Of a stretch of 64,000 nt of DNA, positions 16,859 through 42,000 are shown piece by piece (positions within the stretch are counted from its first letter, which is position 1; every line of letters starts with the position of its first letter). Both the position numbers and the translations under genes were made by a program. The notes beneath the pieces are model-generated. The model saw nothing but the letters and a program-made list of their open reading frames with translations. It was not told the DNA's origin and searched no databases. Source of the DNA: Candidatus Omnitrophota bacterium (GTDB lineage Bacteria; Omnitrophota; Gorgyraeia; Gygaellales; Profunditerraquicolaceae); the NCBI GenBank assembly GCA_028715415.1, contig JAQURX010000002.1:4703-68702 (forward strand). The letters are read 5' to 3'.

Positions 16859-16887
16859 TGACACTATTAATAACTATATGATATACT
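16859..16887 (+). promoter_or_regulatory. Near-consensus sigma70 promoter TTGACA-N17-TATACT with extended -10 (TGa)
   Basis: TTGACA at 16859-16864, 17-nt spacer, TATACT at 16882-16887, TG at 16879-16880. About 35 nt upstream of the riboswitch. Confidence 0.6.
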
Positions 16888-16924
16888 TTTGATGCTCTTG
16901 GAAATAAGATTGTTTATCTGAAAA

Positions 16925-17005: not shown

Positions 17006-17038
17006 TAAAAAAATTATTTGACAATCCGGCTTTTTTTT
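16991..17038 (+). terminator. Intrinsic terminator acting as the riboswitch expression platform
   Basis: AGCCGG (16991-16996) pairs with CCGGCT (17025-17030) and is followed by TTTTTTTT (17031-17038). The 5' arm is shared with the aptamer P3 stem, so the two structures are mutually exclusive. Confidence 0.6.
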
Positions 17039-17079
17039 GAAGCATTAATAAATAGTTTGTTAAAGAATAAAAAAAGAAA

Positions 17080-18078
17080 ATGAAAAACTTACTATCAAAC
17101 AGATTAATAAAAATAATCATAATTTTAATTATGGTTATTTTTTCTTTTAACCAGGTCGCCTTTGCAGCTCGTCATGCAGCTGGCGGAGGCGATATGGCGA
17201 AATTTAATGCCGGCAAATTCGCAGTAGGAACCGGTATTGGTTTAGCTTCTTTTACTGTTGGTAGTGCTTTAGCTGGCGGGATTTCATCTGGTATGCAAGG
17301 TGGCAGTTTTTCCGCAGGTATTGCTGCAACAAAACCATTAGCCTTTTCCACATGGGCAACAAATTATAGTGTAATGACTACAACCGGCCAATTAGGCAGG
17401 GCTGTTGGTAATATGGGCAATTATTATGGGTGGAATCCAAAAGCCACCTTAGCAATCAGCTCTGCTTTGCAGGGCGTTGTTGGCGGAGGGATGAATCCTG
17501 CAGCTTACGGAACCTCAAGCGTTTTAAATGGCATGGCATTAGGTGGGATCAATGGTAGTGTGCAGGGCGCTGTTTTGGCAGCAACAGCAAATAAAAGAGG
17601 TGTTGTACAGCCTTGGGCTGGAGCTGTAGCAGGAATAGCAGGTGGTTTTGCCAGTGGATTTGTTTCCGGAGCGCTTACGCCTACCAATGGAAACTTTTCT
17701 TTCGGAAATAAATTTAATGCGGGGGCTGGATTTAAAGCCGCGGCTACTTCTACAATTCAAAGCCTTCCTTCTCAAGCAATTAGCGTGGGTGTTGGTTACA
17801 TTGCTCAGAATTCAAAAAATCCACAAGATAGATATATGATTCAACAGGCATTTAGCGGTGTTTATCCTATGGTAAATGCGGTAACTAATCCAGTTTCTGT
17901 AACAAACGTGAGGCAGCTTGGCCCCGGCTTTATTAACGTAAGGGCAACACCAAGCGCATACAATTATTCTCAATTCCAGCATGCTAATCCTGTTGGTTCA
18001 GGGTTGCCATCGAATCAGACTCTTAATTATAATTCAAATTCAGGGATTAATAATTTCCCAACAGCTGGTAGTAGATAA
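17080..18078 (+). CDS. Secreted Gly/Ala-rich protein of unknown function
   Basis: 332 aa, signal peptide IKIIIILIMVIFSFNQVAFA, then Gly/Ala/Ser-rich low complexity. Its stop TAA overlaps the ATG of the giant ORF (TAATG). Confidence 0.65.
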   Translation: MKNLLSNRLIKIIIILIMVIFSFNQVAFAARHAAGGGDMAKFNAGKFAVGTGIGLASFTVGSALAGGISSGMQGGSFSAGIAATKPLAFSTWATNYSVMTTTGQLGRAVGNMGNYYGWNPKATLAISSALQGVVGGGMNPAAYGTSSVLNGMALGGINGSVQGAVLAATANKRGVVQPWAGAVAGIAGGFASGFVSGALTPTNGNFSFGNKFNAGAGFKAAATSTIQSLPSQAISVGVGYIAQNSKNPQDRYMIQQAFSGVYPMVNAVTNPVSVTNVRQLGPGFINVRATPSAYNYSQFQHANPVGSGLPSNQTLNYNSNSGINNFPTAGSR

Positions 18079-21000
18079 TGCATAATTTTGCGCAACTAAA
18101 AACAAACATGAGCGAAGACAGAAACACGACAGAAAATAATCTTCAGGCGGAAGCGGTAAAGGAAGAATTCAAATCCAGTTTTAAAGCTTGGATTAGAATT
18201 GTTGCTTTTATCGTCGTGGCTGTGTTTTTGCCTGAGCAGGCTGCCCAAGCTGCAGGGTATGACTGGAGAGTTATTTGGAATAAGCCGGGTTTATCTATGC
18301 CTGCTGTTTTAAATTCAAATGTCGGCCAAGTTAATCAAATTGATATCCCGTTAACCATAAAGAATATTTTAAAAGAAGTTTCCGGTAAACCTTACACTGC
18401 GATAAAGCTCTCTGATAAATTGACCGTTAATTTAGATAAGCCAATTAACCTTTCCCAAGAGAGAATTGAAGAAATTTACAGCTGGCTTAAAGGCAAGCCA
18501 TGCGGATCAAAAGCACTATTAGATTATTTAAAACTTAAAGGTGTGCAGGTCAGCGAGCAGGATATTGCTGTTATGGCTTTGACAGTGGATATTATGAATG
18601 ACGTGGTCAAGCCGGAAGGCAACCCCGCAATTATTTTGAACTCATTATATGCTTTATCTAAAACCGCGGAATTTTATGGACAAAAACTTTACTCTGTTAA
18701 ATTAGCAACTTCAGATTACGGATCATGGAATAAAATAGCGCCTTTTATCGCCCATCTAAACGGCAACCACTTTGTTTTAATAAATAAAATTTCTGGCAAC
18801 AAAATTTACCTTTCCGATAATCACGCAGAAAAAGTTTTATCCACAGATGAATTCAAAAAACAATTTACCGGCTATGCTTTAATCCCTGAAACTAGCAACC
18901 TGAAACCTGAAACTGTTGAATTGTCTGATGCAGAAGCAATGAAGATAATGGGGGCTGCTGCTGCCAATGATAATGTTTGGGGCGGCCAGCTTAACTTGAG
19001 CTTAGATAGCGGTTCTTCGCCTTCGCGTTCTCCTGCACCGACAACTCAGCCTAGTTATACGCCTCAAGCGCCTGCTCAGCTCGGTCTTGGTTATAGCCCT
19101 TCAACACCGTCTTATACACCTACTTATACGCCAAGCTATACTCCAAGCTATACTCCGACGACTCAACCGTCTTATACTCCTGCTGTGCAGACACCAATGC
19201 CTCAAATTACCAATAATTTCTGGACTAATGTGAATAATTTTGCGAATTATACTCCTACGCCAGTTTATACACCACAAGTTAATACTTATACACCTCCGAC
19301 AAATTACGTAACACCTTATACACCGACAACTCAACCAGTGGTTTATACACCCAGCGTTACCCCATCATACAACCTTAATCTTTTTTCTCCAGTTTCCAAT
19401 TATATTCAAAATACTCAACCTGCTTATAACATAACTGTTCCTTTCGCAGCTCCGGCTTATACGCCTCCAGCAAATAATTATGTTACAACTACTCAGCCTG
19501 CTTATACTCCTGTATCTTTTAAACTAGATTTTAATTCTCCGATAGCAGCTCCGTCTTATACATCGCTTACTAATTATGTTGCACCCGTAGCTAAATTTAC
19601 TCCGACAACGCAACCCGCAGCGGTTAGCATGCCTCAGGCAGGCCCGACATTCTGGGATAGCGTGAATAGTTTCTCTAAATATACTCCTCCTGCTGTTCAG
19701 TCTTATTCAGCTCCTCAAATGCCTGTTGCTCAGCTTACTATAGACCCAGTTGCAAATTCTAAACAATGGTCAAATCAGCCTTATGGAAATAATGTAAGTA
19801 TTATGGGGACAAATGCTGCTGGAATGACTACGATTAGCGGAGCAAAGAATTATTCTTCGCATAACAACACAGTAGCTGTTAATTATCCACAGGGAGCTGT
19901 TTTATTTAATGATAGCAAAAGAGGTTTAGGGGATAGGATAGCTATTGGAGTAGGTAGGGTTGCGGCGAGCTATTTAAATATTCCAAAAAACAGTCCAGTT
20001 AGAGATGTTGCGCTTCAGGTTTGGGATAAAGAAACAACTTCTGTCCGGTATTCTTTGGATACAAATCGGGTAACAGGTGGGTTAACAAGCGGCTCTAAAT
20101 TATTTACAGATTTTTCTTTAGCACCGAAAAGCTCAGTTGTCGCAAATACTGTTTCTCCAGTAAATCGTAATGAACACGCCCTGGTTTTAGGAATAAATAC
20201 TCCTAAATCACCTACGGCATTTCAGATTACGCATGTTGACAGGACTCCTGTCAGCCAGCATATGGGGTATTTTCCGCAGGTAAATACTCTACAAGGAAAG
20301 ATTGCTTTTGATCCCTTGGTTTTGGATACAGGAAGATATAATCCTGTAACTCAATCTATCGCTGGCAAGGGCTGGCATACGGATTTGGCAATTAAAAATG
20401 CCCCTAGTAGTAATTTGCAGGTAGTAGTTGGAAAAACTTTTATAGACAAATTACCCGCTTCTTTACCCGGCATCCAGTCGACAATGACTATCCCAAGCGT
20501 TTCTCGTATGGATATTCCTATGGGTTCAGCAGGGTATAACGCAACGCTTAAAGTCGCGGACAACTATAATTTTTCATCCGGCAGTAAGAAATTTAACGGG
20601 GATTTATATGTAGGAATTCCAGATGCCAAAATAGATTCATTTCAGCAATTGGCTTGGGGTACTAAAGCCCCCGGTAAAATCTGGGTGGATATCAATAAAA
20701 TTCCAAATTTAACCAATAATCCATTTAGTAATTCTCCTGCATTTGGCCCGACAGTTACAAGTAAAATGATCGGAGTAGACCTTTCTCAATTTGCGAAGAA
20801 TCAAAATGCCGCGCAAGGCGGAAAGCCCCAGAAATTACAAGGCGGATGGGAATTAGAAGGAAAGTTAAGTTTTGTTAAGATCGCAAATTATAATTCTAAC
20901 TCTCCAAAGATTAAATCACAGACAGATTGGACATTTAATACTAACGGGTTAGGCGCTCGTTATACCAATATAGGTAAAAATTTGGATTCAACGCCTTTGG

Positions 21001-24000
21001 CTCCAAGTTTGGGGATTATGAAGGGAGATACATTGGCTCACTTGCCTTTTGCAAGTACTCATAATCCATCTAGCTCGGGCTTATTCCTGTCAACTTCCCG
21101 TCCAGATGTTCAATTTAGAGATTGGAAGACAAATCATGATTCTACTTGGAACAAACAAACGGTGGTTAATCAGTATAATGCGGGAGTTGAAAGAATAAAT
21201 GCAAGGTTAATTCCCGGTGAAAGAATACAGCCTATAAGCGCAAATAAATACCAGTATTTCCCTCTTTTAAAACCGCAAGTAATAGGTTCTGATATTGTTT
21301 CTGTAAATCATTTTGTCAAACTTCCAATTTCACAAAAGGCTTCTTCTGCTGATGCTGCCAGAATATTTGGCGAAGATTTCTTAAGTACCTACAAAGTAGA
21401 AAAGATAGGGCGTGGTTTACAGTTGACAGGCAAAAATGAATTTAGCGGGCTTTGGCAGATAAATACATTAGGAGTAGATGGTAAGTTAGTAACACGGACA
21501 ATTACTGAAGGTTATGTTTGGACAAATAAAGTCGGGAAAATAGGCGATGTGGATTTAAGCCAAAAAAATAACGTAATAAGCGACGCTCGTTTTAATTTTG
21601 ATCATTTTAAAGGCGATGCAAATGTAATTCCTTTTAAAACAGGATACGGAGTTAACTTAGCTGGCGCTAGAATTGAAAGCGGCATGATTAAAGGGCCCGG
21701 GCTTGCCACTGGGGCATTACCGCAGCGAGTAATAAATAAAGTAGATGGCCTTCTTAAGGCTACCGATATCCACCAGGTATTTCCAAATAATAAGCAAATT
21801 AATCTTACTACAAAAATTAATAGCGATGGAAGCCTCGTAGAAAATTATTTTATAAAAGATAAGAGTTACAGTGCAAGTGTTTTAAGCGGTAAATTCGAAC
21901 AAGATATTACTAATGTGCCGCTAAAAGTAAAATATGATTTGAATAAATTTTCTGCACAGCTTATGCCTAATGGCTCAGTAAAATTAATTACTCCCAACAA
22001 TGCCATTACTTATAGCTATTCTCATCTATTGTCTAATCAGGGTGGTAGTGGTGTAGGCATTAAAAATTTAGGAAAGGGTGTGGAATTAGACTGGATTTCT
22101 CCTGTTTCCAGAGGAGCGGATGTAAATGTTCATTTAGGCAAAGCAGGCATTTTAATCAATCCTCAGGCTAATACGCTGGATTTCTCTCCAACTTATTCCG
22201 AAGGTGCGGTATGGAAGAAGACCGCGGAATTTAATATCGTTAGCAAAGACCAAGCAGTATATGCAGATAAATTAACTGGCATACATTTTTCTTCTGATAC
22301 ATGGTTAGGGCATTTAAAAGGCCAGTCTGGAAGAATAGAAATTGGCGAGCCAGGCAAATTCTCCGGAGATGCAGCTTTTATCAAAGCATTTGCTAATAAT
22401 ACTCCTTATCAATTAACTTCTCAGGATAAAGCAAAATCATTAAATGTTAGCTTAACTCAATTTGATTTGGTAAATAGATTTGATGTAAAAGGCCAAGTTG
22501 CTCCGGATTGGCACTTGTCTTATATGAAAGGCAACGGCATTGTTAATGGCAACAAAATTGATATATTTGATTTAGGGGTAACTAAATTTAGTAATGGCAA
22601 TGAAATGCCCACCTTAGGCGTTAAAGCTGTTAAATCAGGCAATTTATCTATTCCGGAATTTTTCAACAAAGCCGGCGGAGGTTCTTCTGCAGAAATAACA
22701 TACAGTAGCTTTAGCCCGAAATTAAATCTCTTAAAGGTTCAGAATACGACAGAATTAATTGCTAAACAAAATGGCCAGGATATTTATCGCAGAACAAATA
22801 TTGCAAGCGGAACAACGGGCATTTTACTTAACCCAGCAGAAATCAACAAACAGCAGACTTATTTTGACGGCCAGGGAAATTTTGTAGTTGGCTCTGCTGA
22901 TATCAGCTCTTTGTCTTTAAGCAATCGTGCTGAGTGGCAAAATGTTGGGAAAGCTTCTTTAATAAATGGAAAGATTTATGCGAATGACGAAAAGCTCGTT
23001 GCTTTTTCTACTAATTTAAATGGAGATAAAGTAATCCGTGCATCTTTAGGAATTAAAGCCGGAAAAGAATCAGGAGATGTATTAAAAATAGGTAAAAATG
23101 ATTTTCAATTAACTAGTTATCTTCTATCTTCTCCTGAAAAAATTAAACAATACCCGGGAATGAATTTATCTCCTTTGCAAAGAAGCACATTAGGCATGCA
23201 AGAGATAGTTCCTCAATTGTTTTCCGGTGTTGATTCTTATGATCCTCTTGCTGGTTTTTACTCTTCATTAATGCCAAGCTCAAAGAATTTGTCTGAAATT
23301 AATCAAATCATGGGCAGCAATCTTTTACAGAATATTTACAAAGATTGGCCTTCAATTGCAAACACCGGCATAGAATATACTATTTCATCTTGGGCTACTT
23401 ATCAGGAAAGAGATGCCTTGGGGAACATGGTTTTTCCTAACAAGGATGTTATCTTTGGAAAAGGCATTCAGGATAATCATTCTATCAATTGGAAAATTGG
23501 CCAGGTTGATATAAATGGGGAGATAGGTCCTCTTGCTGAAGGAACAAAAACTCTTCTCGGGAATGATTTAATAACCAAGGGGTCCTCTCCTTTGGTTATG
23601 CAAAAGGCAGCTACAGAAATAAATATGAAAGATGGTAAGCCGGTAAATGAAGCTATCGGGCTTTTAGGCTGGCAAGGATTGCCTGTGATTTCTCAGGGGC
23701 TTGTTAATGCAACGGTTAACGCCGGAGGAAATTTATCAACAGATGCTAATCAAAATGGAACAATTCTTAATTCCGAGCATACCTACAATATTAGTGACCG
23801 CATAGGTGGTGTTTTATTAAATGATAATGCTACTCTTACGAATTTAGGTATTGATAATAATGGTAAGGTTAATTTTAACCCTGTAACCCAAGCGGGAAGA
23901 TTAGGGTATTCAAACGTAAAAACATCAGAAATTGTTAATAACAAAGATCTTTCCAGAGTGGCTGATATCAAATGGAAAGATGGTTCGCTTGCAATGCCAT

Positions 24001-27000
24001 GGAATTTAAGTGTTAATGTAAATAATGAAGGAAAACCGACGCATTTTGAAGTTGGATATTTAGGCGGGGCTAATAGCAAATCCGTTAAATTCGACGAGAA
24101 AGGTAATTTAATGAATGGGGCTGGGCAAATTACTTCTACCCAGTATTTATTATCATTAAGGCCTGGTCTGGAATATGGGCCTGATGCCAAGATGCTCACG
24201 CCTGTTTTGTATAGATACAGCGAATTGAAAGATGGTTCTTGGCAGATTCCAAAAGGGAGCACATATTTTGGAGAGAATTTAAAATCGATGATTGGCAAGG
24301 TTATTTCTATTCCAGAAGGCAGTGCAGCACGGAGAATTTTTACTGCGCAAGGCGAAGAATTCAAATCAGGTTATTGGGCTGCTGATCAGAATGGGAAGGT
24401 GTGGGCTTTGAGCCCAACCGCAATGCGTTATGGTATTTTGAATGTTGATGGGTCTTTGCAATATTTAAATAGCGAAGGCCAATCTTTTAAGGAAAGCGAT
24501 ATTCCTGAGGAGATAAGGCCGAATTTAACCTTAGCAAAAGAAATAGCTTTACAGAAAAAGAGCATTGCTGAAAATTCGGAATTTGTGCATAACCAGCTTA
24601 ATGATTTGCATAATGGATTCGCTTATAAATATTTTAGAGCCGGAGAAGGCACAGAAAAAGCATTGAATAATGAGCTTGCAGCAATTCACGATAAGAAGCT
24701 TCTTATCAAAGAAGCTGAAGCGTTCTTGAATGTTGATAATATTGATGGCGCGAAAAATACATTTGATATGTTGGTTGGCGGAGATGCTTTAGCAAAAGTT
24801 GTTGTAGAGGCTCTTCCTTATGCCAAGCACGACGAAAGATTAGTTTTAGATGCATATATGCGTAATGCTGGTGTTAAAGATGATAAAGATGTTGCAGGTA
24901 TTGCAAGAATGGTAAGAGAGGATCCTAAAGCGCGCATGTTTGCTCATAAACTCCCGCAATGGATCAGAGAAAGTAATGATGAATTAAGAGATTGGAAACA
25001 GGGAAATGATATTGTGCGCGATAATCCGGACAGCCCTTGGACAGTATGGGCAGAATCTTTTTATCGCGAAGCTGCAAGTAAAATTTTACCCGTAGATTAT
25101 GTTTTAAATAATCCGGATGCTTCAATGCCTCGCCAAGGTTGGGAAACTTTCAAGAACGTCGGCTCAACTGAATTAGAAGGTTTGGGTATGATGTCTAAGG
25201 GGGGTTGGCAAGGAGTAAGGTCAGTAGTTACAGAACTAGGTGTTTTAGGAGATTCTTTAGTAAGATGGGATTCTTCAGAATTAAAAGAGGGTTCTTTGCT
25301 AGCTTGGGAAACTTTAAAGGGAGGTTATAACCCTTACGACGATGCTTACAACAAAGGCGGCGCATGGAAATCCTTATATTATATGGGGAATGGTTCAGAA
25401 ATTACTCTTGAGATTTTATTAGGCAGAGGCGTTTTGCGTGGGCTAAAACTTGGAGAATACGGAGCTGCCGGAGAAAAGTTAGGACAAGTTTTATCATTCG
25501 GCGGAAAAGTTTCACCTTATGCGACAGCTTCTTTATTGACTGGTGCTGCTGCCGCTGGCGGAACTGCAGTTTATAATGCAGCAGAAGGCAAACCAGTAAC
25601 AGAGGATTTAGCTAAAAATTCACTTCAGGGTTTGCTCGCACCATATCTTATTCATCCTACTACCAAAAGCATTGCTGCTAAAGTAGCGGCTTATGGCCCA
25701 TCTATATTGGGTTTGATGGCTACTCTTGGCGGCACTCTCGATCTAGCTCTTTCTTCCGATAAGAAGTTGGAACGCTATTATAGCGTTGGTGAAAACAAAA
25801 CTTCCGTAAAAGATTCTTCTACAACCTTCTCGTTTGAAAGGTATTTTATTTTTTCTTTTGCAGGAGAACTTTCTGCAGCAGCCGGATCGGTTGTAAGAAA
25901 TTTTGCCCTTTCTTTGGCCGGCAAACTTTCTGCAACAACTGGATATATATCTGGAGATAAAGCAGGCGCGGAAGCAATGGATACGATTACAAAAGGTTTT
26001 GAGGCTTCATATCAAAAGACTTTAGGAAACTTTGTAGAAGTAACCAGAAAATTATTTGGAGATATCCCAGCTATCATTCCAGAGGTGTTACGTACGTTGC
26101 CCGGATTCGCGGGTTTCCCACATACTGTGCTACGTGATATGGCTTATTTTGGCAGAGAAAACGCCGATTTAGCTAATCAGTTTGGCGGAGATCAGATGGG
26201 TGGTTGGATTGCAGGAATTTTCCGCGGCTCAGCAAAAGGTGCTTGGGGTATGTTTAGTTATGTTACTTCTATAGCTGATGCTTCATTGCATGTATTTGAA
26301 GGCGGCGGGGACACTGGAAAGTTCTATCAGGGATTTATTGGCGATAAAATAAAATCAGTTTTAGGGCAAGAGGTTTCTATTTTTGTAGATCCTGAAGGAA
26401 CTGCTAATATTGTAGCTCAACGAGCCTATGAAGGATTTTCATATGTTATTGCTAATTTATTGCTTATGCCTGGAGCGCAACATATAGGTAAAGGCGAGAA
26501 TATTATGGCAGCTGAGAAAACTGCACCTAAGAGCACAGCGGGACAGGTTGCAGTGAGCATTCTTGATGGCTATAACGCAGCAACACGCGCTATACTTCTT
26601 CCTACGGATATGTTAATAGGGATTGGTAAAGCTCCATTAATAGTTGGCAAAGAGACTATTAAAGGAGAGATCTTAGGCAAAGATACCGATACTTCAATAT
26701 ATTCTGGTTTGGTTAAAGCAGGCAAAGAAATAGAAAATAAAATTCCCGGGTTAAGACAGGTTAATACTGAGGCTCCAAAGAAGGCCAATGAATCCCGACC
26801 TACTTTTAAAGACGGCGAAGTTGGCGGCAGACAAGGATCGAAAGTAAGTGCTGCAGAATTAAATTCCGCTGCAAAGGATGCAAGATATGTAGGAACATAT
26901 AATGACGTAGAGGTTTGGTTAAAACCAGGTAATGAAGTAGTCCCTGGACAAGCCGGTGCCGGCGGATTAACTATTGATGGCAAACAAGTAGTCCTTATCG

Positions 27001-30000
27001 CAGAAAATACTTGGAGAAATGCAGAAGGCGGTAACGCAGATGCAAAGTGGACTGTGCATCATGAGTTAATAGAAGCAGCTGGCCGCGGTTCATTCGCAGA
27101 GGGGCCTTTGGCTCCATCTAAAGAAAAAGTTTCTGATGCGGTGCATTGGGAAGGTGAATTAGGTAAAGCGTATGAAGATAATGTAAAGAAAAATTGGCAG
27201 ATGCCGAGATTTGAAGAAGCAACTCCAATCTATTCTAGGGTTGCTACTCCAATGCAAAGAGCAATGGCTTTATTTAATAATATAGCAGGTAGAGCTCCGA
27301 CGCAGAAAGAAATGGTTACAATCATTAAGAACTCACCAATAAAAACAGACTTTATTGATGCAGCAAGGAATGTAGCTAAGGAAACTAAAGTTAAAATAGG
27401 TGACGAATTCTCTTTTGATAATGCTTGGGCAGGGAAATTGTTTAGGGTGAAAGCAAAAGCTACTGAAGGAGAAGGCTGGATCACAGAATATTATTCTGAA
27501 GGGGATAATGCATGGAAACATTTTGCGTTTAAGAAGTTTAGCAGCAGAGAAGTGGTGTTAGGGCAAGAAAAGTTAGCCGCTCAAAAGTCATTAACTGAAG
27601 TGCAACAGGCAAATTTAGATTTTGAAAGATTAACAGGGCACAATCCATCATACAACGAAACAAAGGCAATTGTCACAGAAGTGGTAAACAGGGGAGGAAG
27701 GACAACTTATAGAGATGTTGCTATGGAAAGAGCGGAAATCATAAAAGCCAATCAACGTCTACAGCCCACAGGCACCTTACCTATTATTAATGAAGGCCCT
27801 CTGCAGTTTGCCGAAGGAAGGTTTGGGTTTAATGAGGGAGATGCTAAAGTTGGTAAGGTAGAGGAAAAAGACTTAGCTACACGTGTTGCCGAAGCAACTG
27901 GTGGTAAAAAGATTGAGGAGTTAAATCTTAGAGAAAGAGTGTTTCTTGCTTGGAGCGATGTGCGTTCTTCTCTTCCAAAGGATCAAGCGCAGGCAGATTT
28001 ATTCTGGAGAATAGATTCTACTAATCAAGAGGTAGTATCAAGATTACAAAATAGAACTCCAGGAAAAGATGTCATTCCTCCTACATTTGAAATCCAAGGT
28101 GGTATGTCTTCAGGTAAAGATTCAGGTGCATTGGTATACGACAGTTTACGTCTAAGTGAATTAGGTGATCCAGCAATAGGTAGAGAGGTAGTACCATTAA
28201 GAACTCATTCACAAGCCCAAGAAACAGCAGCTGAGGTTAGAAGAATAATTACTCATCCTTTAATTGGGCTTAAAGAAGGAGACGTTGCAGTTGTTTCTGC
28301 GCACGATCCTAAATCAATAAAGGCTGCAGAAAAAGCACAATTTGTATTCTCTGCAAATGAGGATTTACAGCTTCTTTCTGCAACTCCAGAAGGAAGGAAA
28401 TCAATTGAATCTTTTATGGGGTCTAAAGATGCCCGTCGTCATTATTGGAATCCAGAGGCTGAAGATACTCCAGGCCTTATGGTAGGGACTAAGGCAGCTA
28501 GGAATCTCTCCGCTAAAGAAGGGAATGTCGGGGGCGAGACTCAAAATGTGCTAACCGAGAGACTGGGTTCAGAAACTGCAACAAGAAATGGTGAGAAAAT
28601 TATTTCAAAAGATACTGATCATATAGTGAGTTTAAATGAACCATTAATAGAATCTATTATGCCCGTTTTGAAAGCGGATAGCTTAGAGGAGGCAGTAAAA
28701 ACTGAAGATGGGGCTTTAAGAATGTCGGCAATGGCAGCGAATGCTAAAGCACGCCACGATAAACTTGGTGTTGATGTTGATAGGTTAGAAAATGGGCAGA
28801 CATCTCCGTTGGATGGTCTTTCTGGTGTTAGGCATAGGGTAAGGCCGCATGATCCAATGGATGCAGTTGCTCAAGCCCATATTACAAGAGCAAAAATGGG
28901 AGAGATAACAGGAGAGACTCCTGATTTGCCTGCTAATATTGAATCCCAAGCAGAAACTACCAAGGTTTTAGATGAACAAATGATAAGGATATTAAGGCCA
29001 AGCTCTGTTCGTTTTGCAACAGGCTCTCTTACTTCTGAGGCAGCAAAAAGAAATCAGGTGGTCTATGGTGCAGAATTGCCGCCAGGTGATAGTGTTGCTC
29101 CTTTAGATTTAGCCAGCCTTAAGGTAACCCAAGGGGAACATGATACCGGAGTTAAAAATTTTGAAACTATAATGCAAAAACTGGCTCAAGAAAAAGTCAG
29201 CGGGATTATAACTATTGCAGCTAGAGGAGAAGATTTGCCTGCTTTTGTAACACGAGCAACTGAATTAGCTAAGAATACACAGCAAAGAGTTATATTAGTT
29301 GATGCTGCCGGTGAAAGCAGTTTTGTCACAGGATCTAAAGAACGCATTGCAAGTGATAAAGATGTTAATACTCAGTTAGTTACTTCAGATAACATTGTAG
29401 TTATAGTAGCTCATGGATCTGCAAAGAGTAAGAGTTATTATTTTGGCCAGGATTCTGAAGGAAAACCTCTTGGTAGAGGTTTTGTTTTGGCTGATGGAAA
29501 AGCTTATGCAGAAATTGTCGCACAAGGCACCAAACGTCCAAGGACAGCAGCTACTCTTAATGAAAATGGCGAATTAGTGAAAGATTGGGGAAAACAGCAA
29601 GAGGTATCTGATACTGTTGAAGTTGTAGCTTATGGCCCTACGCGTGAAGGTGCTTCCACCCATCAGGAGAGTTGGTTGAGGAACCAGAGAGACGGAGAAT
29701 TAAGAGCTAATCATCGTAAAGTTATAGATAATTCAATTAGAATGCCGCATGATTCTTTGGAATATTTAGCTCAACTAGCTCCGGAAGCAAGTAAAGAAAT
29801 AGCTACAAGATTAGAGAGAAGAAGACAAGAAGATACGATTTACAAGAATACTGAATTACGAGGCGATGCTGAAAGTGGAGAAACTTCAGCTCTTAGGACA
29901 AGAGATAGGTCAAATATCTGGCTTAGGGAGCAGATGAAGAGTTTGGAATCTTTTGTTAGGGCGGATAATACACAAGCAAGGGATTTTATGAAAGAAATAC

Positions 30001-33000
30001 TCGGTGAAGAATTAAGCCGTGGTCCAGTGCCTTTAGGGTATGCACGTACTCCCGCTGAATTGATTGAAGCTTTAAAAAGATTTGATTCTGCTGATTATCC
30101 AGCTCGCACTCCTCACTACGTAGAAGCAGGTGTTGCTTCAGCTGATGCTGCTGCAGGAGCAAGAAAAGATTTAGGGTTAAAAGGACATGAACCTATAATA
30201 GCAGAAAGATTATTAGCAGTTAGAGGCATTGCTCCAGCAAATGCTCAATGGTTGAAGGATAATGGCTATGCTGATCCTCAAAGCGGCGTTTTATATATTG
30301 ATTCACAATTCTTACCTATAATTAATCAGTTAGTTAATTCTACACAAGCTACAAGACAGGCGTTAAATAGTGGTTTATCCACTCTTAATATTACAGCTGC
30401 TACTTTGCCTGATTCGGAAACTGTTTCAAACCAGCAGGCCTTTGATACACTAAAATCAATTATTGATAACGTTGTGCCGGCAGCTAATACAAGGCAAGGT
30501 TTTAATTCTCTCATGACTTTAGGCCAGCTCGTTAAACCTTTTGAGAGTACTGGCGATAGCGTCTCGATTACTCCTGGAGCATTCAAGAAAGCCCAGCAGA
30601 GCTCGGATTATTTAGCAATTGTAGATTTGGTTTTAAACCTGGTAAGAGCGAGCCATCCTGAAAAAGCAAAAGCCATAGATAACTTGCTTAATGATAAAGT
30701 TAGAAGCGCATATAAGAAAATGCAGATGGCAAGAACTGATGCAGAACGCAAAGCCGCTGCCAAAGCTTTAACTAAAGCTTTGCCTACCCGTACTGCTATT
30801 TATGATGCAATGACGCCTTTTGGCACAGCTGGCACAACTGATGATGAGTGGAAAGCTCCGGAAAAACTTCGTTCAATGGAATTCGTGCCTTTCTTAATTC
30901 CTATGTCTCCAGAAGAAACACGCAATTTAATTGCTGTTGATGATGCCTTATTAGAAGATGATTTGCTCCCAGCATCAGTAGCTACAAAGGTTCCTTTAAT
31001 TGATACAGTAGCTGTTGCCCAAGGCCAGATGAATTTCTCGGGTTTGATTTCCAGATGGGGCGGCAGAAGCGAAGTAGCTAAAGCTGCCAGAATGCTTAGT
31101 AATTTAGAGAATGCTTCCGCAAGGTTATCCGCAGCTAGGAGAATACTTAGCAAACAGGCGCAATCCGGAGAACAACCAGATAAGAAATTACAAAGCGCAT
31201 TAAAGAGTTTATCAAAGCAGATTAAGAGATTGCAAAGATTAGGGCTTGATCCTACTCAATATACCAGTAATGATAATCTAACTGTAATTGCACAAAGAAT
31301 TGTTGGCGAGGATAAGGCTAAAACAGATAAATTAATGGAAAAATTAATTCTTCTTTCTATGGCAGGAAGAAGAGATTTGCTTGAGAAGCAGGTTAATAAA
31401 CATAAAGAATCTTTGGATCCGGCTATCGCAGCGTTGAATGCATTAATTGAGGAAGAAAGGCCGATTGCTGAAGGCGGAGAGAATTTAACAAAGAAAGCCG
31501 AAGAAGTCCGCCAGCAAAGAGAACAGAGGCGTCAACAGCAGATTGCTCAGGTTGAAGAAGATGCAGCTAAAGCAGCCCAAGAGGGAAAAACAGTAGAACC
31601 AACCGAAATCCCAGAAACAGATAGCGTTGAAACGATTGCTGCAGAATTACAAAGCCGCGCTAAAATAACAATTGATTTAGCTAAAGAAAAGTTGGCTAAA
31701 CTTGAAAAAGAAAAGGCTGATGCTGCTGCAGTAACTAATGAAACTCCTCTTGCACAGCAATATGCTGCTACAGAAGCTTATCTTCCTGAAGCATTAGAGT
31801 TGTCCATTAGAAGCGAAGCTTACCAGAAATTTGCTAAAGATAAAGCTGCTGAAGAAAATCAGCCTGCAACAACTGAATTCTCCGCAGAAGACGTGGCTAA
31901 TCGCCTTAACGAAATTTCGAATCAAGATTCCGGCGAACATATGAATCTTATGGCGAAGAAATATACTTATAACACCATCACTCCTGACGAAGATGTCCGA
32001 TTGAATGAAATTGAGAAGAATCGTAGGCAGCAGGCAGAGAGTTTACTCCAGGGCCTTAGTATTGAACAATTGGAAGCAGTTGTAAGGCTTAATGTTGAGC
32101 AGGATGAACGTTTAAATAATGGAGAAAAGCCAGCTTCGTTATTTGGTAATGGAGCTCCAGATTATGCCGCGCAAGAGTTAATAAGGAAATTAAAAGCTAG
32201 GGATGAAGCCAAGTCCGATGCACAATCGAAACAAGGTAATCAACCAGTGGCTCAAGAGCCAAGTAATCAAAGCTTCTTTAAGCGCGCATTGTATTATAAA
32301 GTCACCCTGCCTTTATCAGAAAAATTATTGGGCTCCCCGGTAAGCGTGCATTGGAGTGTTGCTGCTTTAGTAGCGTTCTTGGGGATTAAATTTGGAGGTG
32401 TTACAGCTGGTTTGGCGGCTGCAACGCCTATTATGATTTCAGTATTCTTACATGAAGCTGGGCATGCATGGGCTGCATTTAAGAAAGGAATGAAAACCGA
32501 TAATATTACTCTATTTGGTTTTGGTGGATCAACTAATTTTGATAAAGATAGATATGAAGCTATGTCTCAGAAAGATAAGAAATTTGTCGCTTTAGCTGGC
32601 CCGGCGATGAATTTTGTTTTGGCTGGTGGAGCAGCTATGTTGAATGCTTTAGGCGTTATTGATTCACATTCGGCAAATTATTTTGCTAACATGAATTTAT
32701 TCTTAGGGGCATTTAACTTGATTCCTTTCTGGCGGATGGATGGGGCAATTATATTCAGAAATATTGGTAGAGCTACTAGTAATGCCTTTACACCGCTTGG
32801 CTTGATGATTTATGCTGCTGGGAAGCTTATGTTTGGTAATGGCGGATTAGACAATGCAGGTGTTTCTGGCGCTGGGCAGAATAGTAATGGTGGCGCTAAA
32901 GAAAAGCCTGAACAACAGCCGATGGGTCAACCTCTGCCTTTCACAAATATTCCAACACCAAATGTTAATAATTTGAAGGTTCCTGCAAGTAATGGCTTAA

Positions 33001-36000
33001 TTCAACATTTACATAGCATATTTGGTTTGTTTGGACAGGCGTTATCATTCGCAAGGCCAGCTTATGCCGGAGAAACCAGCTCCCAGCATCTCACTAAGGT
33101 AGCTGGTGCAGGCGTATTTGGCCGTAGCAGCCCGGGTGTCAACTCCGCGGCTGCGATTAGCCCAATCGCAGGTCGTGGTTCTAGGCAAGAGGGCAAAAAT
33201 AGTGCAGGTTCAGTAACTCTTGCTACTACGGAGACTGGATCTGAAACAAGAAATGAAGTAGTAGGTGCAGAAAGTGCCGAAGGAAAGGTAGATGCCCAGA
33301 GTGCAACTAGAAAAACTCAAGGCGCAAATACAGGTTCTAATGATAGAACCGGTGGTTCGACAAGTGCAACCTTAAATGGCACAAATTCTGGTAACGGCAG
33401 CGGTGCAAATAATGGTGCAGCAGGCTTAGGTGGAAAATTAATATTAATTCCTCCAATGGTATGGAGGCTTTTGCGTCTTCTTAATACAATTATTCCTCCA
33501 CAAATCCTCGGCAATAACCATAATGCCCGTGGTCCGCCCGCCAAACTTGGCGCATTAGTAAAAACTTTATCAACTGCTGTATTAATCCTCGCTTCAATCT
33601 GTGGTTGTGCTTCAAATCAAAATCAATATAATCAATCTTCCTCTATCCAAGTTGTTGGCATTATCGCTGCCGTATTAATTATCGCATTACCAATAGTAAT
33701 TAAATTATTAACCAAGCCGGTTTCTGTTCCTTCCGTGGCAGGAAAGACAGTCCCGGCTTTTGTTGTAAATGAGGGCTTCGCAGGAACCCTCCTCCAGGGA
33801 TTGACCCTTCTTGTTGGAGCCCTCATTACAACTGTTTCAAAAATTATAGGAGGTGTAAAATGGTTAAAATCAATTTATCAGAGCTTAGTTTCGACCATCT
33901 TGTCATCTTTGAGAAAGACAGTACAATCTTTGCAGCAGCCCGGTGCGTTGATAAGAATCTTAGGATCTTTCTTATCCATGATAAAACAGGCAACGCATAC
34001 ACCCGTAACGGCAGAGCAGACAGCTGGGAAGAACTCTGTGATACCGACAGAGATATCGTCCTCCAGCGAATTATCGCAGCCCGAAAAACCAATGCAATCC
34101 CAGTCTACAGAATCAACGGAAGACACGATAGCTGATGAAGATGTGCCGTATGTTGTTTACAGAAGAAGATTTGGAATTGTTAATCCTTATCTTTTAGAAG
34201 GTGGATTAAAGGACGATGATTTTAGAGTTGTTTCTGGTGATAGAAGATATAAGCTAGGTCAATTAATTCCCGGGTTTTCTAAGCCAACTCCTGAGGATTG
34301 GGATGAAGCAGATGCATATTTCGCACAAGAAGCTGAGAAAGAAAATCAGGCTGCAGGCGTAATTGCGGGATTACCATTAAGAAGAATGGCTAAAGCCGCC
34401 GGCTTCGTTGTATTAGTAGGCGGTGCGCTTTACGCTGGTGCTGCCCTGTTTGACGGCACACCAGTTTATGCAGCAGATAATCATGCTTCAACCATGAATG
34501 CTCCAAGATTGGATTTGGGAGAAATGTTGAATAATGATGGGAATATCTTTGGGCAGACAACAACTTCTCAGGCCGCACAATTGACAGAAGCAGTAATTGA
34601 GAATGGTAAAGCAGTGCAGATTGTCGATGGAAGCCATCGTATGATATTAGGCGTTCCTGCATTAAACTGGCAGAATTATTCTGATTATCAGGCCTTTAAG
34701 AATGCTGTTAGGAAGAATGTTGAAAGCCAGATCGAATCTTTAAACTTATATACTAAGAAGAATTATTCAATTGATAATCTTAAACAGTACAACGGTTTAA
34801 TTACGAAATATTTAGAAGGTGCATATTGGGCGTTTGATGCAAGAAATAGAAAAGTAACTACAACTTCTTCAACTGCTACGGCAACAGCTACTGCGTCAGT
34901 AACCACGACTAGCAACTTATCTACAACGACTTCTAGCAATGTAGCTACATCTAACGTAACTACTACCACAACAACAGATTCTGCTCCAGCTTTAACTGAA
35001 CAGCCATTTATTTTAGTTGAAGACATCGAAAAGGTTAACTTTGGAAGGCCGTTGTTTGTTGGCCCAGTTGATTCTGTGATTATTACTACTGTTGATGGCG
35101 CACATTTTGTAATTGATGACGCAGAATTCTTAGCTAACCAGTTCGGCTTAAAGACCGGCAAGATTACAAAGATGGAATTTGGCCGTGCAAAGAAGATAGA
35201 AGTTATAGGCGTAGATGGCGAAGTAAAAGTACTTGGTATCAAAGGCATAATAGAAGAAGCAAGAGCACAGCAAGCAAATAAAACTTATCAGTCAAACACC
35301 AATCCTCGTTTTAATATTGATTTAGTTAGAAATGCTCACGAAAAAGGCCTGACAAGAGGTTTACGCGAAGTTCTTACTCTCGGTATTGTTAAGGGCCCGC
35401 GCGCTACCGGATTATATCAGCTTGATTTAAATGGCCGCCAGGTATTTGTATATTATGGTGGAAGCAATGGCCAGGATTTACTCAATGCATTAAATGATTT
35501 TGGTGTCCCAGATGAAAATATTCTTATGGATTCAGCTAAAGAGGAAAAAGTAAAATCATGGGGAATGGCTGCAGGGCGTACTTACGCAGTTGATGTCAGA
35601 CTTCCTGATGGAGAAGTTGTAACAGCTACTTATGATAATGCTTTAGAGATTGCACATCTTTTTAAAGATGCTAAACAGGCAGCCAAAATCAAGCCTGTTA
35701 AACCAGTTCCTGTTACTTCAATAACAACTACTAATACAACAGACATCGGTACTCCTTTTACTCAATCAATGCCGAGCTCTAAGCCGGTTGATACTTTACC
35801 GACAACAACAAGTTTACCTGTAGTAAATCCAGAACCAACAACAACTACAAAGGCAGTGTTACCTCCTGTTACAACAACTAAGCCAGTTGTGCCGACTACA
35901 CAGGCTGCTCCTAAAGCAAAAGTTACTCCAGTAATACCGACAGTAACTACTCCACTACATACCCGCGCTCCTCCGTATGTGGCTCTCGCTGCTCTTTTCT

Positions 36001-39000
36001 TTGCTCTCGCCGCTGGATTATTATCCAAAAATCGCAATTGGGAAATAAAGAATCGTATTAACGATATCCTTAAGAAAGTATTCCCCGAATCCCGCTGGTT
36101 AGCTCCTGCCGTTGAAGGTATCAAAGGTGTTAGAGGTTTAATCAATAGTGCCAAAAATGCATGGTACAACTGGACTTCAAATCATAGTGACTTACGTAAT
36201 ACCATTTTTATTACCGGAGCAGGATTAGTTATTCTCGGTATTGTAGTGGATGGTTCAGTATTTGGTTTTGATTATCATTATAATTGGAACAAAATAACTG
36301 ATGTCTTAAGATTTACATTTACCGGGATTGCGATAGGCTTTGGTTATTTAGCAATAATCGCTGCACTGTTATGGAGAGTTAAGCAAGGCATCCAACCAAT
36401 ACCAGAGGATGACAAATTTGCTCGTATTACAGGCGGCGATCCGGTAGATTTATTAGTTAATGCATATGGATATGGAGAAGAAGAGAGCAATTCAAGCATG
36501 CTTGAGACTGCAGCTAAGTTTTTGCGCAAGAGAGGTTCAGCTGCGCTTTTAGCTGGTATTATGTCTGACAGTGATTATCCGTTAGATTCATATGCAGAAA
36601 TAGTTGGATACTTGAATAGGCAGTCAAGAAGTTGGATAAGAGAGCTAAGTGAAATGGATCGTCAAATTGGGGTTCCAATGCATAGGGATTGCAGAGTTGT
36701 GGTTGGTATACCAGTTGCTGGCCACCAGGAAGGGGATAATATTTATCGTACGTTACAAAGCTATACTCATCAAACTGATAGGTCAGGTAAGGCATTAAAT
36801 AATAATTATTTTGAAATAATTGTATTCATAAATCATCCTTCTGATGTTGCTCCGGATAATACAATTGACGAAGTCCGAAGATTCCAGGCTGATTATCCGC
36901 ATATAAATGTAAGAATGGTCTATAAAAAATTAGATCGTTCAAATATTACGATGGGTAGAATTAGAAAATATGCAACTGACTTGGCGTTGTTAAGACATAA
37001 AAATAGGCACAACAATAGTGATTTGATAATTATTGGAAATGATGCTGATTTAAATGGTTTAGCTCCTACTTATATTTGGGCATTTATTAATGGATTTGAT
37101 ACTCATAGCAATTGGGATGGTATTTTGGGTAAATTAGATTGGGGCTATGATGGGTATTTATCTTCACCTGTATTTCATTTTGGTACTAGGATTTTCCAAT
37201 TGCAGGAGATTATATGTAGGCGTAACTGGGGAACTCCGGGTAGTAGTGGGGCTAACTTTGGTTATAGAGCTAGCCGATATGCTGCTTTGGGAGGTTACAA
37301 CGATAGGATGAAGTGGGGTGAAGATTCAGAATTTGGCTTAAGATTAAGAATGGCAAGAGATAAGAGAGCATTCAAAGCCATCGACCATCCTACTTCAGCT
37401 AATGTTGGTTATGTAGGAAATGCAGCCCTACTATTTACTAACGCAAGAAGAGGGATAGATGCTGTTATTAAAGGAAAAGCTCCTATAGAACAGTGGGATA
37501 GATTTGGTCCTGATGATGCTTTAAGAAAACAGCGCTGGGCAAGGGATCAGAATGATGCATTTAGTGTGGTTTTAAGTCCGGAAGAATTAAGGGACTTATT
37601 AGATAATCCAGCTTATTTGGAAAGATTAAAGAAGGATTTGGAAAGAGTTTTAAATAGAACTTTCATGGGTAGATATGATATTTATGTAGAGCAGGTTCTT
37701 AGGTTGTTGGGGGTACAGCACATTTTATCTACTGATCCCGATGGCAAAAGATGGATAATCTTAACCGATATTACCAAGGCAGTTAAAGGGTTTAAGAGAT
37801 TTCAAGAAACAGCTTCTTCAATATTCGCTGGCAAGACAGGGGCAAAGAAAATAGTCACAAATACTGTTAAGCAGTCAGCTCCTGTAGAGCAACCTGTTTC
37901 TCATGAAGAAAATACAGATGCTCTGCGCACCCAAGCTGAAGAAGCATTGAAGGCAAATGAAGAAATTCTGGCGAGAATTCGCGCGGCATTGGATAGCTTA
38001 GCCAAATCGGAAAATGAATTAGAGCAAATGTTGAATAGGTTGCAAGAGGCACAGCAAGCTGAGCTAACTATAAAGGAAGAATCTACTGTTGAAGCTGCCA
38101 AGCCGGTAGAAGTTGAAGTAATGTCAGTAACTACTGAATCTATTGAAGAAGAGAAGGAGAGATTATTTGGAAAACTAAGGGATATCGGATTTGAGGATTT
38201 TAAGAAATTGAATAAAGCTATATTTGATGCAGCAAGAAATGCAGAGCCTGAAAAAGCACAAGAAGCAATTATAGAAGCTTTAAGGAGAATAGTTAAAGAA
38301 GCAATTGCAGCTTGGCAAAATGCGCAAGCTGCTGTTGAAGTTGTCAAACCGGTAGAAGTTGGAGTAATACCAGCAGCTCCTAAGGCCATAGAAGATGAAG
38401 GTGTGATTGATGTTGAATTTACACCAGTTGAAGATAGCGTAAATAATCAAGTTGAGGATAGCAGAGATCCAGCTGAAAGAGCAATTGAAGATTTATTTGC
38501 CCACAAAGAATTCTTGGAAAATGCGTTAGAAGCTCCTTCATTGCGTCTTAGAAACGGCGCTGCTAAAGAGGCAAGGGAATCATTAGAAGCTGCTTTGGAA
38601 GATGTTAATGCAAAAATAGCACAATTGGAAAAAGAAGCAGATGCAGAAGTTGAGCCAGCAGAAAGTGAAGTAATCCCAGCAACTCCTGAAGCCGCGAAGA
38701 AGGAAGGTGTGATTGATGTTGAAGCGCAACCCGTAACTACTAAAGATGATCCATATGCGTTAACTCAAGAGGAATTAAATACATTAATAGAGGAATTGGG
38801 AGAAGAGCTTGACCCTGTAACTCCTCCAGCAGTAGATAATAATGTTGTTGATGCTGAACCGGCAACTGCTGACCCGATTGTAGCGACTTACCGATTCTTG
38901 AAGCCCAATGATGCTTACGATACAGAAGTTTATGACCAATTAAAAGCATTGGGAGCGCCCATAGATATGTATATAGGTAATGCTGAACCTGGGCAGATAA

Positions 39001-42000
39001 TAGAATTAAAGAAAGGATGGCTATTTAAAATAGGCCTTGATTCTCAGCTTAGAAGAGCGATTTTAATGGTATATCAGACCAGCGCTGCAATAGTAAATGA
39101 GCCAAAAGTAGAGCAGTCTGTAGTAGAAGCTCCTAAGGCGGAAGCAAAGCAAGGCTGGTTAAAGAGAGCTGGAGCTCGAGTGCTCGGAAGATCCTATTCT
39201 ATTATTCCTTTGGGTGCATTATTCCCTCTCGCTAATAATACTTCAACTCCCGTAGTTAACGATGCTTGGGTTATGGTTGTTTTACTTGTTATCGCCGCAA
39301 TATTATTGCCGGTTGCTTTTGCAGATATGGCAGATATGAGGGTAAATTCTTCAACTGTTACTAAGATTAGCCCTGTTGTTGGAGCATTCTTAAATCGCGA
39401 GAAAGAAAAGAACTCAGCAAAAGAAGAAGGGGCTCGCGAAGATACAGTAGAAATTTCTGAAGAAGCACGCAGAGCTGCAGCGCAGAAAGTAGCCAAGATA
39501 TTTACTGGATATGGTTTTGTTGGCACAAGAGATGGTGGGATTGATGTCGTAGCTTTAGGATTAATTTGGTGTGCTTGTGTTGGCATATTTGATGACAAAA
39601 ATAACAAATTCGTCGTGGCACATCTTGGAATGGATAATGATGTTGCTGCCTCTATAGATTTATTACTTGCTAAGTTAGGGAATGCAAATATTAAAGAGCT
39701 TAGATTTGAGGTAATTTCTTCAAAAGAAGGGGATATCTTAAAGAATGAAATTATGCGCGAGCTTGGTAGAAGAGGAATTGTGTTATCTCAGGTTGCTGAA
39801 TCTAGGGTTGAGCAAATGTCTGCTAACGCTTATTTGAATGCAAATAGCGCTAGTATGGATGTACGTAAGAGCGAAAACTTAACCTTTGATTTAATAGCTT
39901 CTCAAGATAAGGTTGGCCAAGGGCAATTCGAGTTGCCGCTAAAGAATTCTTCTTTAAGTAAATCTTTATTTGATTTTGGTGCTATTGTTGCTGGTTTAAT
40001 GACTCAATCAGCATTCGGCGCTAGCACAAGTATTCTTGCAAATGCAGGTGACGCAATAAATTCAATCATGACTTATCTTCAATATGCATTAATCGCTTTA
40101 ATTATTTATGGCATATATTCAATTATGCAGAAAAGATTTGTTGCCGGAATTTATAGTATTGTATTATCAGCTGCGATGTTTGGCATAATGGCAATGCCGC
40201 AAGTTAGCCCTGAATTAGCTTTAGCTGTATTTGCTATTTCCGGGCTGGGTGGATTAGGCGCAAAATTATATTTTAGAAGAGCAAGTGCTCGTGATATTAA
40301 TTTTGGTAAATTGCTTTTGACTTCATCTTTATTGACTGCAATTCTTGGTATGGTTGCAGAGGCAAGAGGCAACACAACTCAGATCCAGTCTTCAGCAACG
40401 ACTGTTAATTCGTTAGTATTAGGGGCTGTAAATAAAGTTAAAACTCCTGTAAGAGCTGCAAATAATGTTAAACCTCAAAAAGCCGGTAAATCAGCGCTCA
40501 AAGCACGCAGCCCACCAGTAATTAATTATAAATCTTTTGAATTGAATGAACTTACCAGAGTAATTGTCGGTGAAAATATTTTCGAAATCCTCAAAGCCTC
40601 CAATAAAGCACAAAGAGAAAGAATAATCGCTTCAATTGTCTGGATTGTTATTAACAGAGCAAAAGACGGTGATTTTGGCGGTAACACTATTTGGAAAGTT
40701 CTAACTTATTCAAATGCTTTCAGCTGCAGATATGATAGAAACAGTAATTATTATACCTATTATAATGATGTTGATAACAAAGAAGAAATTGCTCGTATTA
40801 AAGCCGCTGTTCAGGCTGTCTTGACAGGTAAAATCGCCAATCCAATCGGTAAGGCCACTCATTATTATAATCCGAATAAATCGAATCCTTATTGGGGTAT
40901 AAACGCCAAGACAATAGCTTGGGTTGGCCCGCACAGATTCGTAAATGTGAACAACAAAGAACTTCCTACCGCTAGCCAGAAAATAGCAAGCACAACTAAA
41001 TATTATGGCAAAAAAGCTATTAATGCAGCTTCAAAAGCAGCTTTAAGAGCTTTAAAGAATGCTTTTTCAACAAAAGGTGTTAAACATAGAGATGTTGGAA
41101 CTGGCCTTGTTCTCGTAGGTGTAGTTGGCACAGAAGCTTTTGCAGGCATACTATTAGCTGTAGTAGCTTTACTGGTTATTAAATTAGCACTTAATAGAAT
41201 TGATATAAGAAAAGCTTTGATTGCTGTAACTTTGCCAGCGATGTTCTTCTATGCAGATGTAAAAGATACTGTTGCCAAGTTTATGGATAGTGAAAAATTA
41301 GTTTGTTCCCACTGTAGTAAATTACCTCCGGGAGGAATCAGCCCTAAGCTTGCTGCTCAAATTGATGTATTAGAAGCTCGCCTGAAAGAATTCTTCCAGA
41401 ATAAGAAAGAAATAAAGATTATACCAACATCCGTCTATAGATGCCCTGCATACAATAAGCAAGTTGGCGGTGCGAAGAATTCGCAACATGTAGACGGAAT
41501 CGCTGCTGATTTTCAGGTATTTGTTGATGGAAAGCAAATGCCGGCTATACTTGTGAGGCATTTTATCGACCAATTTAATCTTGGATTTACAGGTAATGGC
41601 ACATATCATGTCAGAAAAATTGTTAATGGAAAAGTGACCTATGTTGATTGGAATCATGGGGATGTAAGAGAAGGTGCTAAGGCCGAATGGAAAGATATCG
41701 ACTCTGGATCTACTAACCAGAAAAATACCAAAGTAACTAAGTATACTCATCACCGTCATGGCCGCGCAAGAGGGTGTTCAATGTTAGGTTCATTCTTCTT
41801 TGGCGCGCTTTATTATCGTGATGACGGGAAATTACTGCTCCATCAAGGACTGATTATTAGAAAAGCATTTGTTGCCACATATGGAATGTTCTGGGGTAAT
41901 ATTTATGCGTTGACCAGTCCGATTATCAGCCAGACTGTATTAAGTTATGATATGGAAGCTGATGCGGCGTTTGGTTATCTTGAAAAAAGAGCAGAATACA

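Follow-up and report, generated by a model that had tools for sequence, protein, structure and literature searches.

The window analysed here is a 64,000-nucleotide stretch of contig JAQURX010000002.1 (positions 4,703 to 68,702 of the forward strand) from a Candidatus Omnitrophota bacterium (assembly GCA_028715415.1). It carries, on its plus strand, a Tad/Flp pilus operon, a riboswitch, a 332-residue open reading frame (ORF) and a giant gene that runs past its 3' edge, and within the giant gene lies a domain of the M50 family, the site-2 proteases (S2Ps), which is the subject of this work. A preliminary description of the window had placed an S2P-like metalloprotease at 32330-32800, in the middle of a protein of more than 15,000 residues. 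A host of that size is borne out by the frame, which is free of stops from nucleotide 18075 to the end of the window (15,308 codons, 0 stops); over the same stretch the other two plus-strand frames contain 1,175 and 1,752 stops. Translation probably begins at the ATG at 18078, in overlap with the TAA that closes the preceding ORF (TAATG). As TAA, TAG and TGA are all in use among the 18 upstream genes, the standard code applies, and an alternative genetic code or a chance ORF was ruled out by the absence of in-frame stops together with this normal upstream stop usage. The frame leaves the window, so 15,308 is a lower bound and the location 'mid-protein' holds for the visible part only; the M50 domain lies 31% along that part, with 14.2 kb of stop-free sequence before it and 31 kb after it.

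The domain was compared with profiles, with sequences of known structure and with its own homologues. In a 400-residue slice, the Pfam profile PF02163 (Peptidase_M50) matched with 69.4 bits (E = 3.7e-19), well above its gathering cut-off of 27.2. Among PDB sequences, the domain matched mjS2P (3B4R, E = 7.7e-13) and SpoIVFB (8VJL, E = 1.4e-10) with the motifs in register, HEAGH being aligned with the HELGH of both proteins. NCBIfam gave remote matches only, to a daptide M50 protease and to RseP, which fell far under the equivalog cut-offs (NF008046, 13.3 bits against 477; TIGR00054, 11.6 bits against 147.6). Pfam gave no match to a PDZ domain and none to the CBS domain (PF00571), a Gly/Ser/Asn-rich linker following the fifth transmembrane (TM) helix instead.

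Column conservation was taken from an alignment of the domain with its 163 nearest homologues, to which its overall identity averages about 31%. Of the 22 columns with a conservation of at least 85%, the giant retains 18, with all of the catalytic ones included: conservation is 98-100% in the columns that hold its H, E, H, G-P, N, N, P and D-G, and 100% in those of N4881, P4884, D4889 and G4890. The predicted zinc ligands and catalytic Glu of the module are intact. Taken together, these matches are much stronger than chance would give, and the region is almost certainly a genuine intramembrane zinc-metalloprotease module of the S2P type (M50). It falls in the mjS2P/SpoIVFB subgroup and has neither a PDZ nor a CBS domain. 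Judged by its domain content, it is neither of the RseP type (group I) nor of the CBS-bearing SpoIVFB type. The family assignment of the preliminary description thus stands, on the PF02163 score, the 3B4R and SpoIVFB matches and the AlphaFold2 (AF2) fold described below, and the motifs that it had named, HEAGH, LAGPAMNFVLAGG and NLIPFWRMDGA, all lie in the frame of the giant ORF. Its span was correctly located and slightly too narrow, the true extent being about 32304-32843; of the two alignments that it had proposed, the one with SpoIVFB shows the motifs in register, and that with RseP gave only a marginal sequence match (E = 0.33).

An AF2 model of the domain, built on a 14-sequence alignment, had a pLDDT of 83.5 and a pTM of 0.78, with the active-site helices at pLDDT 83-97. 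In a Foldseek search the best match was again 3B4R (E = 1.7e-9, TM-scores of 0.71/0.66 and a root mean square deviation of 3.1 Å over 191 columns), followed by SpoIVFB (8VJL/8VJM, E = 1e-6) and then RseP (E = 5e-3). The modelled order of elements is an N-terminal beta-hairpin, TM1, TM2 with the HExxH motif, a re-entrant beta-hairpin, TM3 with the AGP motif, a kinked TM4 with NxxPxxxxDG and a less confident TM5. As in mjS2P, HExxH closes a helix of 28 residues (model residues 42-69) on its C-terminal side; the motif is therefore inside a membrane helix, as had been proposed, and not outside the membrane. Lys and Arg residues number about 14 on the N-terminal flank, the TM2-TM3 hairpin loop and the TM4-TM5 loop, against about one on the opposite loops. 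Such a charge distribution is consistent with the canonical orientation of S2Ps, in which the active site lies close to the cytoplasmic face, as it does in mjS2P, RseP and SpoIVFB.

The M50 domain is seamlessly embedded in the giant. GC content is 0.40-0.42 over the domain and both of its flanks, there is no Met between residues 4626 and 4786 and no leftover start or stop at the domain edges, and coiled-coil and low-complexity linkers continue straight into the domain. The even GC across the junctions gives no support to the idea that the domain was inserted recently.

The host itself belongs to a described class. A search with the first 900 residues of the giant gave 45 matches, almost all of them partial C39 proteins of Candidatus Omnitrophica/Omnitrophota; most share just the first ~280 residues, at 50-59% identity, and the N-terminal anchor and the Cys, His and Asp of the C39 domain are conserved in at least 80% of them. 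Three homologous loci (L165-L167) consist of a Tad locus followed by a giant gene, and all three end at contig edges. Omnitrophota giants have been described with an N-terminal C39 domain near a signal peptide, many TM helices and an upstream locus resembling a type II secretion system (T2SS) or pilus, with class-III signal peptides, and have been predicted to act in prey attachment and cell-wall digestion (West-Roberts et al. 2023, 10.1101/2023.11.21.568195; Seymour et al. 2023, PMC10066038). With its anchor and C39 domain, its predicted TM helices, its cell-wall domains and its Tad locus, the protein encoded here is by its content an Omnitrophota giant of the 'Archaeovorin' type. The finding adds a new architecture to a protease family that is already known, within a known giant-gene class.

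Hydrophobicity scans revealed about 40 TM-like segments in the giant. Apart from the N-terminal anchor, they showed no convincing TM between residues 53 and 4755, and TM clusters occur from residue 5160 onward. The M50 module is the first membrane-embedded element after some 4,700 TM-free residues, and lies where the TM-free N-terminal third of the protein gives way to its TM-rich body. If the module has the canonical M50 orientation, the region just upstream of it would be cytoplasmic, which in turn needs either an N-out anchor or an unrecognised TM; with an N-out anchor the C39 domain would be cytoplasmic, as in PCAT transporters. The stretch from residue 53 to residue 4750 (18231-32324, plus strand) contains almost no cysteine (0.0%) and includes a Pro/Thr/Ser/Tyr-rich repeat region near residues 320-420.

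Further enzymatic domains are listed in Table 1. The C39 domain matched the Pfam profile PF03412 with 44.7 bits over residues ~190-273, and GH2_C is found among the cell-wall and carbohydrate-active matches of the giant. A strong TM (residues 7690-7706) lies between the SleB-type hydrolase and the M15 peptidase, and the zeta-toxin-like P-loop kinase is placed five or six TM helices beyond this pair. In a TM-parity count the peptidoglycan-acting domains are split by the strong TM, and several weak segments make the count unreliable. A second P-loop motif, VGKTVF, occurs at residue 13844 (~59604).

The TM-rich body also contains internal repeats. Two paralogous soluble modules, at residues 7900-8026 (41772-42152) and 9440-9570 (46392-46784), both on the plus strand, are 27-30% identical and share D-A-I-x2-H-E-x2-H-x5-E-x-V-A-Y. 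These HExxH-x5-E modules may represent additional sites of a zinc-peptidase-like kind; neither Pfam nor the PDB gave a significant match for them, and an AF2 model of one (residues 7880-8070) was unusable (pLDDT 35.9). The motif FFG[LA]GE[TV][IV][VA]NAA[TQ] occurs three times, at residues 8083, 8448 and 9018 (42321, 43416 and 45126, plus strand), each copy within a weak hydrophobic segment that stands first in a TM cluster. The motif may be left over from a duplication, or may act as a signal for recognition or cleavage. The TM clusters at residues 8119-8197 and 9132-9209 are 54% identical.

Upstream of the giant, the Tad/Flp operon includes two unusual fusions: a secretin with a C-terminal TonB_C domain (941-2602, plus strand) and a single 717-residue TadZ(ParA-like)-TadA(T2SSE) protein (2606-4759, plus strand), which is matched over its full length in many phyla and is closest to proteins of Candidatus Omnitrophota metagenome-assembled genomes (58% and 52%, full length). 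Three small ORFs for Flp-type pilins with class III signals (7535-7723, 7707-8108 and 8178-8495, plus strand) start with K-K-[AG]-Q-S-T-[LA]-E-Y followed by a hydrophobic helix, and the upstream ORFs scanned included no recognisable A24 prepilin peptidase. The operon is followed by an aptamer of the c-di-GMP-I-GGC class (where c-di-GMP is cyclic di-GMP), which matched Rfam RF03167 with 67.7 bits (cut-off 59), is preceded by a sigma-70-like promoter (11/12 match) and partly coincides with a strong terminator hairpin (z = -4.4) that ends in a U8 tail. The same aptamer is present 80-170 nucleotides upstream of the giant gene in two of the three related loci (L165, 9831-9923; L166, 9738-9829). Neither of the two giant-gene papers mentions a riboswitch; West-Roberts et al. 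(10.1101/2023.11.21.568195) describe PilZ genes downstream of Omnitrophota giants and GGDEF domains within them. Between the aptamer and the giant lies the 332-residue ORF, and the TAATG overlap suggests that it is translationally coupled with the giant.

Table 1. Features of the window, with positions in nucleotides and residue numbers counted along the giant
Feature	Position	Strand	Details
M50/S2P core	32304..32843	+	residues ~4744-4923; Pfam, PDB, alignment, AF2
HEAGH (two zinc-ligand His and catalytic Glu), cytoplasmic end of TM2	32451..32465	+	residues 4793-4797; columns 99-100% conserved
LAGPAMNFVLAGG, A-G-P motif of TM3	32592..32630	+	residues 4840-4852; G 100%, P 99%
NLIPFWRMDGA, TM4 motif with third zinc ligand Asp4889	32715..32747	+	residues 4881-4891
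Giant ORF, host of the M50 domain	18078..63998, past the 3' window edge	+	at least 15,307 codons from the ATG
N-terminal hydrophobic anchor	18180..18230	+	residues 36-52; conserved in 45 Omnitrophota homologues
Peptidase C39	18462..18899	+	residues ~130-275; conserved Cys (GKPCG), His (NHF) and Asp
Hydrolase_2 (SleB-type cell-wall hydrolase)	40638..40940	+	residues 7522-7622; 47.4 bits
Peptidase_M15_3	41358..41531	+	residues 7762-7819; 39.3 bits
P-loop kinase-like	42945..43268	+	residues 8291-8398; AAA_18/AAA_33/Zeta_toxin, 23.5 bits, under the gathering cut-off
Glutaredoxin	48030..48209	+	residues 9986-10045
Tandem CIA30-like beta-sandwich repeats, then GH2 TIM-barrel	51234..53000	+	residues 11054-11371, then 11438-11642
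Tad/Flp pilus operon	49..16481	+	RcpC, secretin-TonB_C, TadZ-TadA, DUF192, three Flp-like pilins, TadB, TadC, TadG-like
Promoter-like site, c-di-GMP-I-GGC riboswitch aptamer and terminator	16858..17039	+	aptamer at 16917-17006; upstream of the 332-residue ORF
332-residue ORF	17080..18078	+	N-terminal hydrophobic segment; no family match; TAA overlaps the giant's ATG (TAATG)

The reading that we favour is that the module is an active protease and serves the giant itself, by cutting the giant's own TM helices; we put its probability at roughly 35%. Such self-processing is plausible in a host with about 40 TM helices and an intact C39 peptidase, and it is favoured because giants appear to carry biogenesis and processing domains of their own and because proteolytic splitting is already suspected in the field. 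It parallels the published speculation that the embedded C39 and S8 peptidases split Omnitrophota giants, for which it is an open question whether they persist as a single chain (West-Roberts et al., 10.1101/2023.11.21.568195). At least one of the giant's TM helices would be a substrate of the M50 module, either in cis or between neighbouring copies, and the M50 module and the embedded C39 peptidase would jointly free or reshape modules of a membrane polyprotein. Proteases of the membrane are not without precedent inside giants, since signal-peptidase-II content has been described in a giant of 147,155 residues (2026 preprint, doi 10.64898/2026.06.07.730766).

A fuller version of self-processing, which we hold to be improbable as a whole, would make the giant a membrane polyprotein with its own processing system, in which the S2P cuts defined TMs, liberates modules during predation and is switched on by the c-di-GMP-I-variant riboswitch. 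The helices with FFG[LA]GE..NAA at residues 8083, 8448 and 9018 would then be candidate substrates, and their cleavage would free the cell-wall hydrolases, the zeta-like kinase, the glutaredoxin and the glycosidase on either side of the membrane.

Several points weigh against self-processing. The first is the distribution of the domain. A word-indexed search with the domain gave 13 matches, all 185-397 residues long. HMMER, run with residues 4601-5200 against 1.84 billion representatives, gave 5,593 matches, none of them below 1e-30, and the best 150 of the 5,593 are proteins of 140-484 residues that cover only residues ~4748-4920; the best of the matches listed are annotated as 'stage IV sporulation protein FB' or Zn-dependent protease, and the one that was inspected has an ordinary gene context. 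A scan of JGI metagenomes gave 80 loci with identities of at most 39%, the longest ORF with an M50 match being 850 residues, and no relatives of the domain were found in GTDB species representatives. In these searches, every relative of the domain that could be detected is a protein on its own, in an ORF of at most 850 residues. The same HMMER search gave no homologues for the flanks (residues 4601-4747 and 4921-5200), and a word-indexed search of 5.8 billion proteins gave none for residues 3601-4749, the 1,149 residues upstream. The N-terminal homologues P0174, P0198 and P0165 end at contig edges within ~1,100-1,700 residues, short of the M50 region. As the interior of the giant is without homologues and its public relatives end early, conserved embedding could not be shown. 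Moreover, the main texts of West-Roberts et al. 2023 and of the 2026 Omnitrophota preprint make no mention of an M50, site-2 or intramembrane protease.

The second concerns the catalytic module and its expected substrates. In the alignment with the 163 homologues, the flank of the Asp ligand reads RMDGAI in place of the consensus P (99%)-x-D-G-G (98%)-R (91%), with R4887 replacing Pro, A4891 replacing Gly and I4892 replacing Arg, a departure from the P-x-D-G-G-[RKH] flank that is near-universal in the M50 family. A fourth conserved column is also altered, with Lys replacing Glu at residue 4835 (86% conserved). The module has no TM6, the equivalent of which in mjS2P is a gating helix; after residue 4923 comes a Gly/Ser/Asn/Thr-rich linker of ~230 residues, and the next hydrophobic segment is at residue 5160. 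The changed Asp flank and the absent TM6 could mean an altered or reduced activity. The usual substrates of S2Ps are single-pass type-II anchors that have already been cut at site 1, or pro-sigmaK; we know of no S2P that acts in cis on a polytopic host.

That the module is an active S2P with other substrates is the alternative that fares best, though we consider it unlikely. It would have been fused to the giant only for co-expression or co-localisation, possibly as the housekeeping S2P of the lineage in a reduced genome, and its work could be the regulated intramembrane proteolysis of an anti-sigma factor-like regulator or the clearing of leftover signal peptides. The complete set of catalytic residues and the canonical orientation suit an enzyme of this kind, as do nearest relatives that are ordinary stand-alone S2P genes in ordinary contexts. 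Giants are also reported to gather many unrelated enzymes, signal peptidase II included, and West-Roberts et al. (10.1101/2023.11.21.568195) wrote of embedded peptidases that these might cut other substrate proteins. However, a housekeeping protease encoded within an ORF of over 46 kb under riboswitch control would be expressed only with the giant; the module has no PDZ or CBS domain for regulation, and the divergence of its DG flank and the absence of TM6 point to specialisation.

These same departures bear on whether the fold is catalytic at all. A non-catalytic or decaying S2P fold could have been kept to provide a membrane anchor or a scaffold for insertion, or as a pseudo-protease that holds substrates, by analogy with the inactive C39-like domains of some ABC transporters, and the Pro-to-Arg, Gly-to-Ala and Arg-to-Ile changes around the Asp ligand, at positions conserved at 91-99%, would agree with this, together with the Glu-to-Lys change at the 86% column, the lack of TM6 and the status of the domain as an orphan without conserved partners. 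We nevertheless find it distinctly doubtful, as H, E, H, D and all but two of the other columns conserved at 98-100% are kept at about 31% overall identity, a retention for which it is difficult to account unless the metal site is under selection, and as the AF2 model is confident through the active-site helices. Finally, an assembly chimera or sequencing-induced fusion of a stand-alone M50 gene into a long ORF is scarcely credible: no second giant with an M50 domain was found, and the public short-read assembly of the source sample is fragmented (the one window protein looked up there, TadZ-TadA, was found only on a 5.4-kb contig), but the long stop-free frame on both sides, the uniform composition across the junctions, the clean domain edges and the linkers that run into the domain all speak for a genuine junction.

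For the question of whether Omnitrophota giants function as one chain or in pieces, which is open, the embedded intramembrane protease provides a concrete, mutable candidate enzyme. At ~200 residues the module is short and expressible, and can be tested against the giant's own helices. Were self-cutting true, it would be the first S2P to act on its own polypeptide and the giant the first cellular polyprotein to be processed by intramembrane proteolysis; should the module prove merely a captured housekeeping enzyme, it would add one further domain annotation in a known gene class. For the S2P field, the architecture would be unprecedented and comes with an unusual variant of the Asp flank.

Among characterised S2Ps, mjS2P (MJ0392, 3B4R) is the best match in both sequence and structure. 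The two share the N-terminal beta-hairpin, HExxH in TM2, the re-entrant hairpin, AGP in TM3, NLIPxxxMDG in TM4 and the absence of PDZ and CBS domains. They differ in that mjS2P is a free protein of 224 residues with six TMs and reads PMDGGR, whereas the module here has five TMs, lies inside a chain of more than 15,308 residues and reads RMDGAI. SpoIVFB of B. subtilis is of the same M50 subgroup but has a C-terminal CBS domain, which the module lacks, and has a soluble substrate of its own, pro-sigmaK. E. coli RseP (group I) has the catalytic motifs and core fold in common with the module, but carries two PDZ domains, of which the module has none, and is without the first TM of the mjS2P-type core. 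With viral polyproteins the likeness is one of concept, a long multi-pass chain with its own proteases, and involves no homology; to our knowledge, no viral polyprotein protease is of the S2P type. The closest comparison for the host is with its own class. Divergent SecA-like domains are reported in Omnitrophota giants (10.1101/2023.11.21.568195); Pfam detected no SecA in the visible 15,308 residues here, the C-terminal part of the giant and the genes downstream of it lying beyond the window. With the 'Archaeovorins', which include the 39,678-residue protein of V. archaeovorus, the giant has in common the anchor and C39 domain, tens of TMs, cell-wall-degrading domains and an upstream Tad/T2SS-like locus.

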